64,000 nt of DNA, taken from NCBI RefSeq assembly GCF_041886205.1, contig NZ_CP169029.1; one strand, given 5' to 3'. The notes under the pieces are model-generated. The model did not search any database and was not told the DNA's origin. It was given only the letters and a program-made list of their open reading frames with translations. This stretch comes from Escherichia coli (GTDB lineage: Bacteria; Pseudomonadota; Gammaproteobacteria; Enterobacterales; Enterobacteriaceae). The position numbers were made by a program, and so were the translations under genes. Position 1 is the stretch's first letter. Each line of letters starts with the position of its first letter. Shown here one piece after another: positions 11,673 to 53,670 of this stretch.

Positions 11673-13280
11673 CGTGATACTCCTGTTAATGAGCCGCTTC
11701 AGGCAGGACAAAACCCATCGCCGCATCGATAAATAATCTTTCGTCCATCAGTTTGAGTTCTGGCGAAATCACTGGGGTGAAATCCATTTTGTCGAGAATA
11801 TCTTTTTGTAAATCGACGCCAGGGGCGATTTCGATTAAATGCAGTCCGTCTTCTTTCAGCGTGAATACTGCGCGCTCAGTGATATAACGAACATCCAGCC
11901 CTCGCTCGAGAGCGATTTTTCCGCTAAAAGTAATTTCCGGTAGTTCCCGAATAAATTTATTTACCCGTCCTTCCTGGACGATATTCAATTTGCCGTCGGT
12001 AATTTCTGTTTTTAAACTGCCCGCAGTTAATGTGCCGCAGAAAACGATTTTCTTCGAAGTGGCACTGATATCAATAAATCCACCGGTGCCCATGATTTTA
12101 CCATTGAATTTATGCACGCCGACGTTACCGTGCTGGTCGACTTCAGCAAAACTCAAATAACAAACATCCAGACCGCCACCGTGATAAAAATCAAACTGGG
12201 ACGTCATATCCAGAATGGCGCGGGTATTCACGTTCGCGCCAAAGGCGATCCCCTGTGAAGTAATTCCGCCAATCGGACCTGTTTCTACCGTCAGAATAAA
12301 GTCATCAGCACAACCTTCTTCTCGGGCGACCAGGCCAATGCCGTCAGCAATACCGACGCCGACATTCCCCACCGCGCCTTTACGCATTTCGAATAATGCG
12401 CGCCGCGCAACTAATTTACGTTGGTTTAGGGGCAGGCTAAGTTTGGTACTGTCATCAAGGGTGAAGTCACCAGAAATAAAGCGGTTAACCGGTGCACCGC
12501 CATACAGTTGGGTTTGATCCGGATCGACCACCACAATATCCACCAGATAACCCGGAATACGGACAGATTTAGGATGCAGCGTGGCTTTCTTAACCATTTT
12601 CTGCACCTGCATCATCACAATACCGCCGTTATTGTGCACCGCCTGGGCAATAACCAATGCGTCGAGATACATCACCTCATCTTCAAAAGTGGCGTAGCCT
12701 TCGCTGTCGCAGGTGGTAGCGCGAATGAAGGCGATATCTGGCGCAATCGCTTTGTAATAGAGATATTCTTTGTTATCAAACTCGACCAGTTTAATCAGGT
12801 CTTCTTTAGTGACTTCATTCAGTTTGCCGCCTTGCTGGCGTGGATCGACAAATGTCCCGATGCCAATATCACTAATAATACCAGGCTGGTGGGCTGCGGC
12901 GGCGCGTAAGGTTTGTGTAAGTACACCTTGTGGATAGTTATAAGCAATAATTTTATTTTGTTCTGCGAGATCAGAAATACGCGGCGATTGTCCCCAGTGA
13001 CCGCATAATGCCCATTTCACCAGACCTTCTTGCGCCAGCGGACTAATACCGCGATCGGCGCGATCGCCAAGCCCTGTTGGACTAATAATCGATAAATTAC
13101 GTGGCGTTTGAGTCTGTTTATATTTATCAGCAAGAGCAGTAATTAACGTGGTGGCTTCCAGAATACCGCCGCCAGCGCCTAACACACAAAGTGTTGCTTC
13201 GTCGGGAATATAATTCACCGCTTCCGGTGATGCTGCCAACTTACTGATTTAGTGTATGATGGTGTTTTTGAGGTGCTCCA

Positions 13281-13556
13281 GTGGCTTCTGTTTCTATCAG
13301 CTGTCCCTCCTGTTCAGCTACTGACGGGGTGGTGCGTAACGGCAAAAGCACCGCCGGACATCAGCGCTATCTCTGCTCTCACTGCCGTAAAACATGGCAA
13401 CTGCAGTTCACTTACACCGCTTCTCAACCCGGTACGCACCAGAAAATCATTGATATGGCCATGAATGGCGTTGGATGCCGGGCAACCGCCCGCATTATGG
13501 GCGTTGGCCTCAACACGATTTTCCGCCATTTAAAAAACTCAGGCCGCAGTCGGTAA
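13281..13556 (+). CDS. insA: IS1 InsA (transposition inhibitor / N-terminal part of transposase)
   Basis: 91-aa [25 protein letters not shown]...; A6C frameshift motif (TTAAAAAACTC) near its 3' end. Confidence 0.9.
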
Positions 13557-19032: not shown

Positions 19033-19170
19033 CGTGTAATGGCTGCATGAAATAAACAATAAAATATAAATAACATTATCAGCCTGCTGACGGCTTGAAG
19101 AGAGTCACAGTATCTTGTGCAACATTATTGGAAAGAGTGAGGGGCGAGGTAGCGAAGTGGAAAAATGTTA

Positions 19171-19275
19171 AAAAAAAGCCCATCGTGGGAGATGGGCAAA
19201 GACTACACACAGCAATTCGTTGTTTCACTCAGGGGATTTCCATGCTTATAAATCAATATGTTGATTTATAACCGT
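19171..19275 (-). ncRNA. rprA: RprA small regulatory RNA (RpoS translational activator)
   Basis: Reverse complement matches the RprA sequence I recall (ACGGTTATAAATCAACATATTGATTTATAAGCATGG...CCCACGATGGGCTTTTTTT), including intrinsic terminator; coordinates +/-2 nt. Confidence 0.85.
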
Positions 19276-24713: not shown

Positions 24714-24937
24714 TCCTGACTTAATGCCGCAAGTTCGCCAAATCGACCTGGATTAACCTCCGTCCAGGTTCGATGACCTTCTTAATACTGCTTATCTACC
24801 GCCTGATATTGTTCAAAAATAATACTAATCGCAGTTTGTGTTAAAACGGCGGGTTAGCTTTATGAGATTATTCTTATCGCCCCTTCAAGAGCTAAGCCAC
24901 TGAGAGTGCCGGAGATAAGCGCCGGATGGGGTAGAAA

Positions 24938-24980
24938 CCCTTAAGCCTGTGTCGCACAGACTTAAGGGTTTTCTTATTTC
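24938..24980 (+). terminator. strong intrinsic terminator hairpin (CCCTTAAGCCTGTG…CACAGACTTAAGGG) followed by TTTTCTTATTT; possible 3' end of sRNA RydB
   Basis: Perfect inverted repeat plus U-tract seen in sequence, about 225 nt downstream of the ydiH stop. Confidence 0.6.
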
Positions 24981-35170: not shown

Positions 35171-37920
<2,750 letters not shown>

Positions 37921-37923
37921 GGA

Positions 37924-38571
37924 ATGGGTAAGATGAACCATCAGGATGAATTGCCGTTAGCGAAAGTCAGCGAAGTTGACGAGGCGAAGCGGCAATGGTT
38001 GCAGGGGATGCGTCACCCCGTTGATACGGTAACCGAACCAGAACCTGCTGAAATCCTGGCTGAGTTCATTCGCCAGCATTCTGCGGCTGGGCAGCTGGTG
38101 GCGCGCGCCGTGTTTCTCTCGCCACCCTATTTGGTTGCAGAAGAGGAACTGTCAGTTTTGCTGGAAAGCATTAAGCAGAACGGAGACTACGCGGATATCG
38201 CTTGTTTGACGGGAAGCAAGGATGATTACTATTACTCAACGCAGGCCATGAGTGAAAACTACGCGGCGATGTCTTTGCAAGTTGTGGAGCAGGACATTTG
38301 TCGCGCCATTGCACACGCCGTTCGTTTTGAGTGCCAGACGTATCCTCGTCCTTACAAAGTCGCCATGCTGATGCAAGCGCCATATTACTTCCAGGAAGCG
38401 CAGATTGAAGCCGCGATCGCCGCGATGGATGTTGCACCTGAATATGCCGATATACGGCAGGTGGAGTCATCGACGGCGGTGTTGTACTTGTTTAGCGAGC
38501 GATTTATGACCTATGGCAAGGCTTATGGCTTATGCGAATGGTTCGAGGTAGAGCAGTTTCAGAACCCCTGA
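37924..38571 (+). CDS. ydhW: uncharacterised protein YdhW
   Basis: 215-aa ORF in operon position between ydhV and ydhX. Confidence 0.82.
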   Translation: MGKMNHQDELPLAKVSEVDEAKRQWLQGMRHPVDTVTEPEPAEILAEFIRQHSAAGQLVARAVFLSPPYLVAEEELSVLLESIKQNGDYADIACLTGSKDDYYYSTQAMSENYAAMSLQVVEQDICRAIAHAVRFECQTYPRPYKVAMLMQAPYYFQEAQIEAAIAAMDVAPEYADIRQVESSTAVLYLFSERFMTYGKAYGLCEWFEVEQFQNP

Positions 38572-38634
38572 AATTTCAGGGAGATGTCATGGATAGGGTG
38601 GACAGTTGCAGCCACTGCATTAGGGGATAATCAG

Positions 38635-39303
38635 ATGTCCTTCACTCGACGCAAATTTGTTCTGGGGATGGGAACAGTAATCTTTTTTACTGGTTCTGCG
38701 TCTTCTCTGTTAGCGAACACGAGGCAAGAAAAGGAAGTTCGGTATGCCATGATTCATGACGAGTCACGGTGCAATGGCTGTAATATTTGCGCCCGCGCAT
38801 GCCGTAAAACTAACCACGTCCCCGCTCAGGGAAGCCGTTTATCGATAGCACACATTCCAGTCACCGATAACGACAACGAAACGCAGTATCACTTTTTTCG
38901 CCAGTCATGTCAGCACTGCGAAGATGCTCCGTGCATCGACGTTTGCCCGACGGGGGCATCGTGGCGTGATGAGCAGGGGATCGTGCGGGTAGAAAAATCG
39001 CAGTGCATCGGCTGCAGTTATTGCATTGGCGCTTGTCCGTACCAGGTTCGCTACCTTAACCCTGTCACTAAAGTGGCAGATAAATGTGATTTCTGCGCTG
39101 AGTCCCGGCTGGCAAAAGGCTTTCCGCCCATTTGCGTCAGCGCTTGTCCGGAACACGCATTGATCTTTGGTCGCGAAGATAGCCCAGAAATTCAGGCGTG
39201 GTTGCAGGAAAATAAATACTATCAATATCAGCTACCTGGTGCCGGGAAACCGCATCTGTATCGCCGGTTCGGTCAACATTTGATTAAAAAGGAAAATGTA
39301 TGA
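38635..39303 (+). CDS. ydhX: 4Fe-4S ferredoxin-like protein (Tat signal)
   Basis: ORF 38584..39303; start chosen at MSFTRRKFVLGMGT giving 222 aa; four Cys clusters. Confidence 0.85.
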   Translation: MSFTRRKFVLGMGTVIFFTGSASSLLANTRQEKEVRYAMIHDESRCNGCNICARACRKTNHVPAQGSRLSIAHIPVTDNDNETQYHFFRQSCQHCEDAPCIDVCPTGASWRDEQGIVRVEKSQCIGCSYCIGACPYQVRYLNPVTKVADKCDFCAESRLAKGFPPICVSACPEHALIFGREDSPEIQAWLQENKYYQYQLPGAGKPHLYRRFGQHLIKKENV

Positions 39304-40085
39304 ACCCGTCGCAACATGCTGAACAGTTTCAGAGCCAGTTAGCGAACTATGTGCCACAGTTCACTCCCGAATTTTGGCCGGTGTGGTTGATCATTGCCGG
39401 AGTATTGCTGGTTGGGATGTGGTTGGTGCTGGGGCTGCACGCCTTGCTTCGTGCTCGTGGCGTGAAGAAATCAGCCACCGATCATGGTGAGAAGATTTAT
39501 CTTTACAGCAAAGCGGTCAGATTATGGCACTGGTCGAATGCGTTACTCTTTGTATTGTTGCTGGCAAGTGGGCTGATAAATCACTTTGCGCTGGTGGGCG
39601 CAACTGCGGTCAAAAGTCTGGTTGCGTTGCATGAAGTTTGCGGATTTTTGTTACTCGCATGCTGGCTCGGCTTTGTGCTGATCAATGCTGTTGGGGGTAA
39701 TGGTCACCACTATCGCATTCGTCGTCAGGGGTGGCTGGAACGAGCGGCAAAACAAACGCGATTTTATTTGTTTGGCATTATGCAGGGGGAAGAACATCCT
39801 TTCCCGGCAACAACCCAGTCTAAATTTAATCCCTTACAGCAGGTCGCCTATGTTGGTGTCATGTATGGATTGCTGCCGTTGTTACTATTGACGGGGCTGC
39901 TGTGTCTCTATCCGCAAGCCGTGGGAGATGTGTTTCCTGGCGTAAGATACTGGTTATTGCAGGCGCATTTTGCTCTGGCATTTATAAGCCTCTTTTTTAT
40001 CTTCGGTCATCTTTATCTTTGCACCACGGGGCGTACGCCACACGAAACCTTTAAAAGCATGGTCGATGGCTATCACCGGCACTAA
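39300..40085 (+). CDS. ydhU: cytochrome b-type membrane subunit (PhsC/NrfD-like)
   Basis: 261-aa polytopic ORF; start overlaps ydhX stop. Confidence 0.85.
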   Translation: MNPSQHAEQFQSQLANYVPQFTPEFWPVWLIIAGVLLVGMWLVLGLHALLRARGVKKSATDHGEKIYLYSKAVRLWHWSNALLFVLLLASGLINHFALVGATAVKSLVALHEVCGFLLLACWLGFVLINAVGGNGHHYRIRRQGWLERAAKQTRFYLFGIMQGEEHPFPATTQSKFNPLQQVAYVGVMYGLLPLLLLTGLLCLYPQAVGDVFPGVRYWLLQAHFALAFISLFFIFGHLYLCTTGRTPHETFKSMVDGYHRH

Positions 40086-40088
40086 CGA

Positions 40089-40901
40089 ATGATCATTACA
40101 CGAGCAGACCTGCGAGAATGGCGTATCGGAGCGGTGATGTATCGCTGGTTCCTGCGCCATTTCCCACGCGGCGGTAGTTATGCCGATATTCATCATGCAC
40201 TGATTGAGGAAGGATATACGGACTGGGCGGAGAGTCTGGTTGAGTATGCGTGGAAAAAATGGCTGGCGGATGAAAACTTCGCGCATCAGGAAGTTTCCTC
40301 TATGCAAAAACTGGCCACAGACCCCGGAGAGATACCATTTTGCAGTCAGTTTGCCCGCAGCGACGATCATGCTCGCATCGGCTGTTGTGAGGATAACGCC
40401 CGAATCGCAACCGCTGGGTATGCCGCGCAAATTGCCAGTATGGGTTATAGCGTGCGGATTGGAAGTGTCGGCTTTAACAGTCACATTGGCAGCTCCGGTG
40501 AACGCGCACGGGTTGCTGTAACCGGTAATTCTTCGCGGATAAGCAGCGCTGGAGATAGTAGTCGGATTGCGAACACCGGAATGCGAGTACGCGTTTGTAC
40601 ATTGGGTGAACGGTGTCATGTCGCCAGTAATGGTGACCTGGCGCAAATCGCCAGCTTTGGCGCAAACGCCAGAATTGCCAACAGCGGCGACAATGTACAC
40701 ATCATTGCCAGCGGTGAAAATTCAACGGTTGTGAGCACGGGCGTGGTCGACTCAATTATTCTCGGGCCAGGGGGAAGCGCCGCACTGGCATATCATGACG
40801 GCGAAAGAGTTCGCTTCGCCGTCGCCATTGAAGGTGAAAACAATATTCGAGCCGGAGTCCGCTATCGTCTTAATGAACAGCATCAGTTTGTTGAGTGCTG
40901 A
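40089..40901 (+). CDS. ydhT: uncharacterised protein with about 13 tandem 9-residue repeats
   Basis: 270-aa ORF; repeats with the pattern xRIxxxGxx visible in the translation. Confidence 0.85.
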   Translation: MIITRADLREWRIGAVMYRWFLRHFPRGGSYADIHHALIEEGYTDWAESLVEYAWKKWLADENFAHQEVSSMQKLATDPGEIPFCSQFARSDDHARIGCCEDNARIATAGYAAQIASMGYSVRIGSVGFNSHIGSSGERARVAVTGNSSRISSAGDSSRIANTGMRVRVCTLGERCHVASNGDLAQIASFGANARIANSGDNVHIIASGENSTVVSTGVVDSIILGPGGSAALAYHDGERVRFAVAIEGENNIRAGVRYRLNEQHQFVEC

Positions 40902-40912
40902 TAGCTTTACCT

Positions 40913-42517
40913 TTAATCAAACGAAAGACGCCGACGTGCACGGGATGCAGGTTTTACGACCGCCCGAGCCATCGCCTCACCAATTTCTGCACATGCCGTA
41001 AGTCCCTGAACGAAAGGCTGGTCGTGCATCAACCAGGGCAACGCGCCGAACGCTACGCGTCCACGAATATCTTCGGGTTGCTGTAACGTATAATCTTCGC
41101 CAACATCAGGGATTTCATCCCCTGTTTTCTGTAATTGCTCGCGTAGCCCAGGGAAAGGAATATCTTTCACTTTAAGCGGACGCTGTCCGCGGGCATCAAT
41201 AAAAACGTCAAACGAGTAGCTGTTGTCTTCCGTTTTCAGGACGGTGCGCGACTCATTAATTTCCATTTCGTAGTCTTCACCGAGGGCGAGAATATGAATG
41301 ATCCCCGCTTCACGTAAGGCCAGCAGCCGACGAATAGACTCTGAAGGGATTGCCGCATAATTATCGATAAAAACCCGGGTAAGGCCTTTACTGAACCGTT
41401 TATGGTCGTGTTCATTCAGATGTGGAACAATTTCCTGTACGGCTTCATGCAGGCGCAGAATGACATAACGCCAGGGAACAGTATGTTTTTCTCGTTTATT
41501 GCGTTCGACTTCCTGGAGATTTTTTTCTGCCCAGTCAAATGGGTCGCGTTGTTTGCGCTCGGCAAACCAGGCTTGAGCAAAGGAATCGACATTCAGGCTC
41601 TCTAAGGCTATGCGTTGGCTCCAGTCTGGATCAGCAAACTTGATTTCCTCTACTATCAATCTAAATACCCGATCCAAAAGGCCCTCTTCGCCTTTTTGAA
41701 TCTCAGCATTTAATGCCTGATCGGTGACAATGTGTAAGGACTCGTAGGGAATAGGGCAATAGAAATCGGCTTCGGGTAAAATACCCGTGCGCGACATCAA
41801 CGTGATATTTAGCTTTTCACTTGCGTTATCGCGGTGAAAAACGACGTGTTGTTTATCATCTTCAATGAACGAACCATGCTGAATAGCCACTGCCATTGCC
41901 GCATCCAGTCCGCTCAAGGATGTTCCCATAATACCCACGTTACACGCATCGACCTTTGCTTCCATCAGGCCTGACCACGGGCTGGGAAAATACGTTCGGG
42001 TTGCTTCTTCTTCATCAGGCCAGACGTGACCCGTGGCAATCACCGCTAAATCAAACGTCTCGCTGGGTAAACCCTGATTTGTAGCGAGCATGACGCCAGC
42101 ATTTGTAATTTGCAGATCGGTAACCTGGCATGATTCATAAACAGCCACTGCAAATTTTTGCTTTCGTGCCTGGTCTACTAATCGTAAAAATTGATCGCGG
42201 AAATATTCGCCCAGCAGAATTCGCGGTAAAAACTGACGATCGTGCAAGGTTTCTTTTTTAACGCCATAACGCTGGAGATGGCTGGCTTCTTGCTTTTGTA
42301 GCCATTCGAGATACGTACAATTAATCGGCGGTATTTCAATACTGGCAATATTTGCCAGCATCATTTTTGAGTTTTCCTCATCACTGTATGGCATCCCGAC
42401 ACCGGCCTCGTCAGCCTGCTCGAAGATAGAAATAGAAAGTGGAGTTTGTTGCTGTAGAAGCGAGAATAAGGTGTAGATCCCCGTAGGCCCGGCACCCACA
42501 ATAGCAATTTTTTTCAT
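40913..42517 (-). CDS. ydhS: FAD/NAD(P)-binding protein
   Basis: 534-aa ORF with N-terminal GAGPTG dinucleotide-binding motif. Confidence 0.88.
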   Translation of the reverse strand: MKKIAIVGAGPTGIYTLFSLLQQQTPLSISIFEQADEAGVGMPYSDEENSKMMLANIASIEIPPINCTYLEWLQKQEASHLQRYGVKKETLHDRQFLPRILLGEYFRDQFLRLVDQARKQKFAVAVYESCQVTDLQITNAGVMLATNQGLPSETFDLAVIATGHVWPDEEEATRTYFPSPWSGLMEAKVDACNVGIMGTSLSGLDAAMAVAIQHGSFIEDDKQHVVFHRDNASEKLNITLMSRTGILPEADFYCPIPYESLHIVTDQALNAEIQKGEEGLLDRVFRLIVEEIKFADPDWSQRIALESLNVDSFAQAWFAERKQRDPFDWAEKNLQEVERNKREKHTVPWRYVILRLHEAVQEIVPHLNEHDHKRFSKGLTRVFIDNYAAIPSESIRRLLALREAGIIHILALGEDYEMEINESRTVLKTEDNSYSFDVFIDARGQRPLKVKDIPFPGLREQLQKTGDEIPDVGEDYTLQQPEDIRGRVAFGALPWLMHDQPFVQGLTACAEIGEAMARAVVKPASRARRRLSFD

Positions 42518-42903
42518 TGTTACTTACCTGTACGCATTCTTTCGAATTTAGTGTTATCAGATAAGTTTGGTTGAGATTTTTAGAATTTGAGAAATTTCAG
42601 ACAGGGATGAAAAGGGCGCTAACCGCCCTTGATTAAATTCTGTCAGGCGAGTTTTGCCTGATTGATTTGACTCAGTGGCTCATTGACATCGAAAACTTTG
42701 GCGACAACTTCCTCAACGCCGAGATTTTTAAGTCGGGCAGTATGTTTTTCCAGATAGGCAAGGGCGCTTTTTTCATCAGTAAAAAGATAGATCCCACCGG
42801 CTTCGTGGTTCTTTTCACTTTCTGTCCATACCTTCCACAGAAAACCAGGTTCCTGATTAATTGAACCGCCCCGGGTTTCCTGGAGAGTGTTTTATCTGTG
42901 AAC

Positions 42904-43794
42904 TCAGGCTGCCAGATCATCGTTTCCGATGGAAGCATAATAAGCTTTTTCTGCTTCTGCCGGAGGAGTATGGCCCAGCCTTTCCAGCAATCGTCGATTG
43001 TTATACCAGTCCACCCACGTGAGTGTGGCCAGTTCCACTTCTGCACGGTTTTTCCAGCTCTTACGGTGTATTACCTCCGCTTTGTAAAGACCATTGATGC
43101 TCTCCGCCATCGCGTTGTCATACGAGTCGCCTGTACTTCCTGTTGATGCCAGTAATCCGGCTTCCTTAAGCCGCTGTGTGTAGGCCAGCGATACATACTG
43201 AGAACCTTTATCACTGTGATGGACCGTGCCGGACGGTCGACGGGCCCATAACGCCTGCTCCAGTGCATCCAGCACGAATGTCGTTTCCATGGACGATGAG
43301 ACCCGCCACCCCACGATGTATCCGGCAAACACATCAATGATGAACGCCACATAGACGAAGCCCCGCCATGTGCTGACGTAAGTAAAATCAGCCACCCACA
43401 GCTGGTCAGGTCGTTCTGCCACGAACTGACGGTTTACGCGGTCGCCTGCGGCAACGGCTTTCCGGCTGATGGTCGTACGGACCTTTTTACCCCGGAGAAC
43501 ACCGGCAAGTCCCATAACCGCCATGAGACGTGCCACAGTGCATCTGGCCACTCTGATACCTTCCCGTAACAACTGACGCCAGACTTTACGCACACCGTAT
43601 ACCTTGTGATTTTCATCGTATACGCGCTGTATCTCTTTCTTCAGCCAGTCATCGCGCTGCGCACGGGCACTGCGTTTATCCGGATGATGTCGCTGTTGCT
43701 GACAGTGGTAATACGTTGACGGGGCAATATGCAGTTCGCTGCATAGCGGTCCGACCCCGTACTGCTCACGCAGCTTATCCAGCAGTGGCATCAT
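42904..43794 (-). CDS. IS3-family transposase OrfB (DDE integrase core)
   Basis: 296-aa ORF; overlaps orfA 3' end at an A-run consistent with -1 frameshifting. Confidence 0.88.
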
Positions 43795-44117
43795 TTTTTC
43801 CAGAGGCGGTCGAACTCCGCCTTCGCAAAATAAGCGGAAGCCTGGCGAAGGATATCGTTACTGCGGCGCAGTTCACGATTTTCACGTTCCAGCTCTTTCA
43901 GACGCTGACGTTCAGCGGTGGTGAGCCCTCCATCACCGCCCCCGGTATCCCGCTCATGCTGGCGAACCCAGACACGCAGAGTCTCCGGCGTACAGCCAAT
44001 CTTTGGAGCAATGGAACAAATTGTCGCCCATTGTGAGTCATATTCGCTCTGACTTTCCAGAACCATACGGACTGCCCGTTGACGGACTTCGGGGGAAAAA
44101 CGAGTATTTTTAGTCAT
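43791..44117 (-). CDS. IS3-family transposase OrfA (HTH)
   Basis: 108-aa [26 protein letters not shown]... Confidence 0.88.
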
Positions 44118-44368
44118 CCTGTTTACCTCTTTCTCAGGAAGTTTAGTCTCCAGGATTCCCGGGGCGGTTCAAATCGACTCAGCAAGCGGTTTAAGCTGCT
44201 CAGCCATTGCGTCGCCAAATGGGCCATTAAAAGCAAAATGAAGTTGTAACAAAGTTGCCATAGCGATTCTCCTTCTGATAACGCATACGAAGACAGTGTA
44301 AATCTTTTAACGTATTGGATACAGAGAAGAAACAGAGGGAAAAAGGAGAAGACCAGATTAAGAAAATC

Positions 44369-44445
44369 TGGTGCGTCCGAGTGGACTCGAACCACCGACC
44401 CCCACCATGTCAAGGTGGTGCTCTAACCAACTGAGCTACGGACGC
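44369..44445 (-). tRNA. valW: tRNA-Val (GAC anticodon)
   Basis: Reverse complement reads GCGTCCGTAGCTCAGTTGGTTAGAGCACCACCTTGACATGGTGGGGGTCGGTGGTTCGAGTCCACTCGGACGCACCA; valV/valW assignment by position; +/-1 nt. Confidence 0.9.
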
Positions 44446-53117: not shown

Positions 53118-53161
53118 TCCATTTCACTCCAGACCCTAACTTCAGCTCCTGCAAAATCGCA

Positions 53162-53177
53162 AGGTAAACGTTTGCCT
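53162..53177. promoter_or_regulatory. PurR operator-like palindrome (AGGCAAACGTTTACCT) in the purR leader
   Basis: Match to PurR box core about 45 bp upstream of the purR start codon. Confidence 0.6.
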
Positions 53178-53415
53178 TTACACACCTTACGCACAACAAA
53201 AGTGTTGCGGTACGCCGGAAAAACGACACGGAGCGTCAGGAAGGGGTCAATGGCCAGTACGCAAATAGTGTAAGCGTGGAATTTTGGCCGATCTTGACGA
53301 AAAGGGGAAGTGGTAAAAACACTTATCATTATAAATGACGGGAGATTTTTTCATCACAGTGTGTAAAAATGCGTAATATCACTTTTTGTGTGGTAATAAA
53401 AAAGGAGAAAACTTG

Positions 53416-53505
53416 ATGAGCACCGACCTTAAATTTTCACTGGTAACAACGATTATCGTCCTCGGTTTGATCGTGGCCGTGGGTTTGACTGCCGCGCTGC
53501 ACTGA
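53416..53505 (+). CDS. ynhF: 29-aa single-TM small protein
   Basis: ATG preceded by AAAGGAGAAA RBS; translation MSTDLKFSLVTTIIVLGLIVAVGLTAALH; below the ORF-track length cutoff; +/-1 nt. Confidence 0.7.
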   Translation: MSTDLKFSLVTTIIVLGLIVAVGLTAALH

Positions 53506-53670
53506 TTTCCTCTCGAGGGAGCGCGTTCTCCCTCGCATCTCCTTCCTGTTTGTTAGCAAAATGGCAAAAGTGTTTTCTCTTTTTGTTATTTTCATTTTTT
53601 TGTGATTGCTGTCATGCTTTCGCCACTTTAATGAATATCGCGTAATGACGCGAAGAGGTGGAGATAAGGC

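Follow-up and report, generated by a model that had tools for sequence, protein, structure and literature searches.

The genes ydhT and ydhS meet tail to tail in a stretch of 64,000 nucleotides from an Escherichia coli genome (contig NZ_CP169029.1 of RefSeq assembly GCF_041886205.1; this whole stretch is called the window below, and positions are counted from its first letter). We find that they form an ordinary tight tail-to-tail junction, which is real and already catalogued. The best explanation, and one we consider likely, is that transcription reading through from either side is ended by Rho and has little regulatory consequence. Its observed parts are the geometry, the missing canonical terminator, the catalogued overlap of the transcripts and the small number of antisense reads. 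Rho as the terminating agent and the slight consequence of the overlap are the parts of this explanation that we infer.

Arrangement of the two genes

Along the window, pykF and fumD are followed by ydhYVWXUT and then, on the opposite strand, by ydhS, ydhR and valVW. The ydhYVWXUT operon (35171-40901, plus strand), delimited from the open reading frames, the RefSeq annotation and the listing in PMC3688515, is FNR-activated and has ydhT as its last gene. The ydhT coding sequence (40089-40901, plus strand) specifies 270 amino acids and closes with a TGA stop codon at 40899-40901, directly followed by an in-frame TAG. That of ydhS (40913-42517, minus strand) encodes a FAD/NAD(P)-binding protein of 534 amino acids and closes with TAA at 40915-40913, the reverse complement of TTA. 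The spacer between both stop codons (40902-40912) is 11 bp long, and the junction reads gag tgc TGA, then TAGCTTTACCT, then TTA atc aaa. An earlier note, made from the letters of the DNA, had ydhT ending at 40901 on the plus strand and ydhS at 40913 on the minus strand, about 11 bp apart; the open reading frame list, the sequence and RefSeq confirm these coordinates exactly. The RefSeq annotations of strains VE-T9, 6EVA and K-12 MG1655 (ydhS 1747131-1748735, ydhT 1748747-1749559 in MG1655) have the identical 11-bp gap. A 120-nt stretch covering the junction was found in 5417 of 5426 complete E. coli genomes, with at least 95% identity in all except three.

Both proteins match their NCBIfam equivalog profiles essentially from end to end: YdhT scores 490 bits against NF007410 (cut-off 300; profile positions 1-269 of 269) and YdhS 1113 bits against NF007381 (cut-off 783; profile positions 1-534 of 535). 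The C-terminal FVEC* of YdhT is kept across Escherichia and Citrobacter, with FVAC* in three Citrobacter loci. Because the matches run through the last residue, the stops of ydhT and ydhS are not mis-called, and these matches together with the conserved C-terminus rule out an annotation artefact arising from a wrong stop.

How common such tight junctions are

We compared the junction with other convergent pairs in a sample of five stretches totalling ~243 kb, consisting of the surrounding 42.6 kb and four arbitrarily chosen 50-kb blocks of MG1655. Among the 39 other convergent pairs of coding sequences the median gap is 42 bp, and eight pairs (20.5%) lie at least as close together as ydhT-ydhS, with gaps of 3 bp or less or with overlapping ends: the gap is -4 in punR-purR, zapC-ycbX, yccX-tusE, yqfG-yqfH and tatD-rfaH, +3 in yadE-panD, -38 in sxy-yccS and -113 in bioP-metR. 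Gaps in the sample form two groups, one of at most 3 bp (including five of exactly -4) and one of 31 bp or more, with none of the 39 at 4-30 bp. We also observed a cluster of gaps at 39-44 bp, about the size of one terminator hairpin. The gap between ydhT and ydhS is not beyond chance or custom.

As opposite-strand, tail-to-tail neighbours, ydhT and ydhS have the arrangement of a convergent excludon, and the pair is among the 165 convergent excludons of MG1655 listed by ExcludonFinder, for which transcript boundaries from RNA sequencing had to overlap in 50% or more of 58 samples (Sanmartin et al., NAR 2025; PMC12288877). The same list holds seven of the eight tight pairs of our sample, so for pairs this close the call is nearly a matter of geometry. 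These seven (punR-purR, zapC-ycbX, yccX-tusE, tatD-rfaH, yadE-panD, sxy-yccS and bioP-metR) resemble ydhT-ydhS in having no room for an intergenic terminator, so that each transcript must end inside the opposing gene. The ydhT-ydhS pair differs from the seven in its 11-bp gap, which sits between the two modes of the sample; in function it belongs to the tight class without space for an intergenic terminator.

With the stop codons 11 bp apart, any 3' untranslated region of either mRNA must be antisense to the opposing gene. The proposal of the earlier note that transcription from either side must enter the opposing gene is thus borne out by the geometry, and the overlap listed in PMC12288877 agrees with it.

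Termination of the read-through RNA

We scanned for intrinsic terminators with a discriminant of the d'Aubenton-Carafa type (d; formula after d'Aubenton Carafa et al., 1990). No site with d above 0 was identified downstream of ydhT across all of ydhS, nor downstream of ydhS across ydhT and ydhU. The sole site with d above 0 in 39000-43000 is the intrinsic terminator after ydhR (42628-42614, minus strand; d +1.9), a hairpin made of GGGCGGUUAGCGCCC and UUUUCAUCC, which serves as a positive control for the scan. This terminator and the difference in reads per million (RPM) between ydhR (489) and ydhS (49) suggest that ydhS is transcribed apart from ydhR. The promoter of ydhS probably lies past the ydhR terminator, in the AT-rich ~90 bp that precede the ydhS start codon.

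In the explanation that we favor, two independently transcribed units would face each other: the FNR-activated ydhYVWXUT operon, and ydhS with its probable own promoter. With a gap of 11 bp, and with efficient intrinsic terminators lacking beyond both stop codons, RNA polymerase coming from either side would continue past the stop codon and transcribe the opposing gene in antisense. The read-through RNA would be untranslated, and for this reason we take Rho to be the probable main agent that ends it, inside the opposing gene; a hairpin spanning the ydhT stop codon, or head-on collisions between polymerases, possibly help. The ydhT and ydhS mRNAs would then overlap at their 3' ends over a short distance and at low abundance.

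Rho is reported to end untranslated and antisense transcripts in E. coli. The read-through RNAs of ydhT and ydhS are likewise untranslated and have stretches with more C than G. Unlike in the established cases, Rho dependence at ydhT-ydhS is a prediction from base composition. We looked for at least ~80 nt of untranslated RNA that is rich in C and poor in G. The RNA reading through from ydhS has such a segment antisense to ydhT (40272-40195, minus strand), a candidate Rho utilization (rut) site whose C/G ratio, 3.44, exceeds the window's 99th percentile; a second stretch, with a ratio of 1.8-2.0, lies 280-380 nt beyond the ydhS stop codon. The RNA reading through from the ydhT operon, antisense to the 3' end of ydhS (40902-41039, plus strand), has modestly more C than G and is a possible Rho loading zone. 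In its first 140 nt the ratio reaches only 1.3-1.4 in 78-nt segments, which puts them near the 75th-85th percentile for the window.

The hairpin across the ydhT stop codon

The alternative that survives best, though we judge it unlikely, is that an inverted repeat at 40861-40905 (plus strand) itself stops transcription. One version is a weak intrinsic terminator for the ydhT operon with release at ~40912-40914, another a bidirectional terminator that depends on collision; in both, the overlap of the two mRNAs would span no more than a few tens of nucleotides. The repeat forms an 18-bp hairpin from the last 41 nt of ydhT and four bases of the spacer, followed by UUUACCUUUAAU, and is a candidate for a weak or collision-assisted terminator or a 3' stabilizer. 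Its predicted folding energy is -16.8 kcal/mol (z -2.66), a stability that no sequence among 200 shuffles reaches. The minus-strand version reaches -13.1 kcal/mol (z -1.2), so that a stem-loop is possible in both nascent RNAs, as overlapping bidirectional terminators require. Against this, 5.1% of GC-matched 66-nt segments of the window fold at least as well as the hairpin.

A stable stem-loop just upstream of the release site is present, with a stem rich in A-U and G-U pairs. However, the UUUACCUUUAAU tail provides neither an uninterrupted U tract nor a positive discriminant. The T tract after the hairpin, TTTACCTTTAAT (40906-40917, plus strand), is interrupted and reaches from the spacer through the ydhS stop codon. 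By hand calculation from the fold energy, the tail score nT is ~2.9 and d is ~-29; the latter is low owing to a long stem with many A-U and G-U pairs and to the interruptions of the T tract.

Five E. coli variants retain the complete stem, and one substitution turns a G-U into a G-C pair. In the nearest sister Escherichia lineages (L003-L006), however, synonymous and spacer substitutions destroy the basal stem. There is no covariation support in an alignment of 15 sequences, where 72.2% of cells are paired versus 71.0% after shuffling and 26 of 500 shuffles attain the covariation score; neither conservation nor covariation of the stem in relatives therefore speaks for an intrinsic terminator. 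The comparison with relatives, the covariation counts and the variability of third codon positions rule out the hairpin as a conserved RNA element, and an Rfam search of the junction and its surroundings gave no RNA family.

Termination by head-on collision is described as requiring a stem-loop in the nascent RNA and not a canonical terminator (bioRxiv, 10.1101/2022.10.23.513370), which would suit this hairpin. It also needs heavy traffic from both sides, whereas both units here are weakly expressed. Such termination is possible at ydhT-ydhS and less likely at expression this low. Overlapping bidirectional terminators between convergent genes have reportedly been observed by SEnd-seq. The ydhT-ydhS pair resembles them in being convergent, with a stem-loop that can form in both nascent RNAs, and differs in the weak expression of both genes, in a stem whose conservation is confined to E. 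coli sensu stricto, and in a structure that is predicted from sequence.

The earlier note had denied that a hairpin terminator would fit. Taken literally this fails, given the 18-bp hairpin, but it holds in practice because neither the hairpin nor any downstream site passes the discriminant for an intrinsic terminator, and no canonical one is present.

Variation of the junction among relatives

A scan of 100,044 species genomes for YdhT identified 12 loci. Among these, ydhS adjoins ydhT only in E. coli and in cryptic Escherichia clades (E. whittamii among them), and the stops are 11 bp apart in every case. The spacer is 11 bp long in four other Escherichia lineages, and 7 of its 11 positions vary. 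In E. coli strain 25DN (L019, positions 171-183, corresponding to window positions 40901-40918), the ydhS stop TAA has changed to CAA; the gene is two codons longer, ending at a second in-frame TAA, and the gap to ydhT is reduced to 5 bp.

Other genes occupy the position of ydhS elsewhere. In E. albertii (L007, 3813-3877) ydhS is absent and ydhR converges on ydhT 63 bp after its stop, and in Citrobacter amalonaticus (L008, 3810-3815) an unrelated open reading frame of 225 amino acids converges 4 bp after the ydhT stop. With different partners at the end of the operon, tight junctions arose more than once. This repeated origin would fit neutral packing rather than a dedicated device. A clean insertion or deletion of ydhS relative to E. 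albertii was considered and not upheld, as the E. albertii ydhT-ydhR spacer has no homology to either flank of E. coli ydhS beyond the ydhR coding sequence; the change may have been a gain or a loss.

Third-codon-position variability at the junction is 0.33-0.48 in five Escherichia lineages, compared with means of 0.44 and 0.48 for the two genes and a gene-wide range of 0.27-0.70. Judged by these values, the junction appears to be under no extra sequence constraint.

Expression of the two genes and possible interference

We used Table S1c of PMC7373196 (Huang et al., 2020), which gives reads from total RNA sequencing of the wild type. Sense and antisense values are 489 and 2.9 RPM for ydhR, 49.2 and 8.0 for ydhS, 3.9 and 2.6 for ydhT, and 9.4 and 1.0 for ydhU. 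These per-gene antisense reads are consistent with transcript overlap. The antisense read density over ydhS (~5 per kb) is about equal to the sense density over ydhT (~4.9 per kb), and the antisense signal over ydhT is present but small and drops towards ydhU, a pattern that limited read-through from ydhS would produce. Antisense reads in ydhS (8.0 RPM) exceed sense reads in ydhT (3.9 RPM). A sigma-70-like site, ATGACA-16-TATGTT, lies antisense within ydhS at 41460-41487 (plus strand) and could be an internal antisense promoter. Among the rows of the PMC7373196 tables available for inspection, there is no cluster of p19-captured double-stranded RNA (dsRNA) at the junction (coordinates 17465xx-17468xx).

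The material accessible from three further datasets, PMC6131387 (SMRT-Cappable-seq), PMC10349824 (transcriptional interference) and PMC7815308 (Term-seq; Adams, 2021), contains no match to ydhS, ydhT or the junction coordinates. This lack of matches is not informative, as both genes are weakly expressed and the supplements are possibly incomplete.

PMC3688515 (Myers et al., 2013) places ydhYVWXUT in the FNR-activated regulon. The readable expression lists of its supplement hold ydhY, ydhV, ydhW and ydhR and lack ydhS (b1668); we take these lists to report O2-dependent expression, judging from one table title and from the gene content. The supplement also has an FNR chromatin immunoprecipitation (ChIP) peak labelled ydhR, upstream of ydhR/valVW at U00096.2 coordinate 1744589, and in the list ydhR shifts the same way as ydhY, ydhV and ydhW. 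Both flanks of ydhS may therefore respond to FNR.

A functional excludon is a less probable alternative than a working terminator. It would have FNR-driven transcription of ydhYVWXUT enter ydhS and lower its expression, by collision or by RNase III cleavage of the duplex, with the converse under aerobic growth, and the expression of the two units would be mutually exclusive. The catalogue entry in PMC12288877 and the activation of the operon by FNR favor such a device, as do the dsRNA reads within ydhS (25-376 RPM in the PMC7373196 tables). Yet ydhS is missing from the readable, presumably O2-dependent lists of PMC3688515. Both units are weakly expressed, so collisions between polymerases would be rare. 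The two genes adjoin only in E. coli and close Escherichia clades, while E. albertii and Citrobacter have other neighbours, and the junction combines a natural spacing of 11 or 5 bp with no additional conservation. Compared with the convergent excludons of MG1655, ydhS-ydhT is a catalogued entry with overlapping transcripts. The behavior that defines an excludon is reciprocal expression; for this pair the documented behavior is overlap, and the expression lists that are readable do not suggest reciprocity.

The antisense interference between the anaerobic operon and ydhS that the earlier note had raised is accordingly unsupported, given the absence of ydhS from the accessible O2 lists, the low antisense reads and the lack of constraint at the junction. 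We regard regulatory interference as undemonstrated and somewhat disfavored. Least probable of all, by a small step, is an oxygen-responsive excludon in which FNR-driven read-through would silence YdhS anaerobically and an E. coli-specific hairpin would set the reach of the overlap.

Several points weigh against Rho-terminated read-through of little consequence. The termination points and the dependence on Rho are predictions drawn from the letters of the DNA, and a literature search for 3'-end data of nucleotide resolution at the ydhT-ydhS locus found none. The hairpin is moderately unusual (z -2.66, within a 5% tail) and is kept in the five E. coli variants, so a role for it is possible. At gaps this small an ExcludonFinder call is close to automatic and says little about the depth of the overlap. 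In addition, p19-captured dsRNA reads in the PMC7373196 tables are fairly high in ydhS, at 25-376 RPM over the gene as a whole versus 3-6 RPM in ydhT.

Other features of the window

In the source strain ydhR is interrupted by an IS3-family insertion of 1310 bp (42862-44171) with a 3-bp duplication of the target. The insertion carries open reading frames at 43791-44117 and 42904-43794 (both minus strand) and an ALIL pseudoknot at 43720-43836 (minus strand). It is absent from K-12, 6EVA and VE-T9, and none of the complete E. coli genomes in the collection has the same junction as a single high-identity aligned piece (best 93.7%). Positions 13226-13448 match the first 223 bp of IS1D (99.1%), indicating that an IS1 copy starts there in the source strain.

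Rfam matches above the gathering score comprise the small RNAs RprA (19168-19275, minus strand) and rydB (24879-24939, plus strand), STnc550 (53118-53508, plus strand), and the HPnc0260 antisense family (44245-44407, plus strand), which overlaps the valV-valW tRNA region.

Significance

The finding itself matters little, since the arrangement is of a textbook type and the overlap of this exact pair is already catalogued. The two modes in the distribution of gaps may be of mild general interest, as they fit convergent genes that either share no terminator space or keep enough for one hairpin. Coupling of ydhS to the FNR-activated operon, if true, would be one more example of an excludon and would give a first regulatory clue for two uncharacterized genes.

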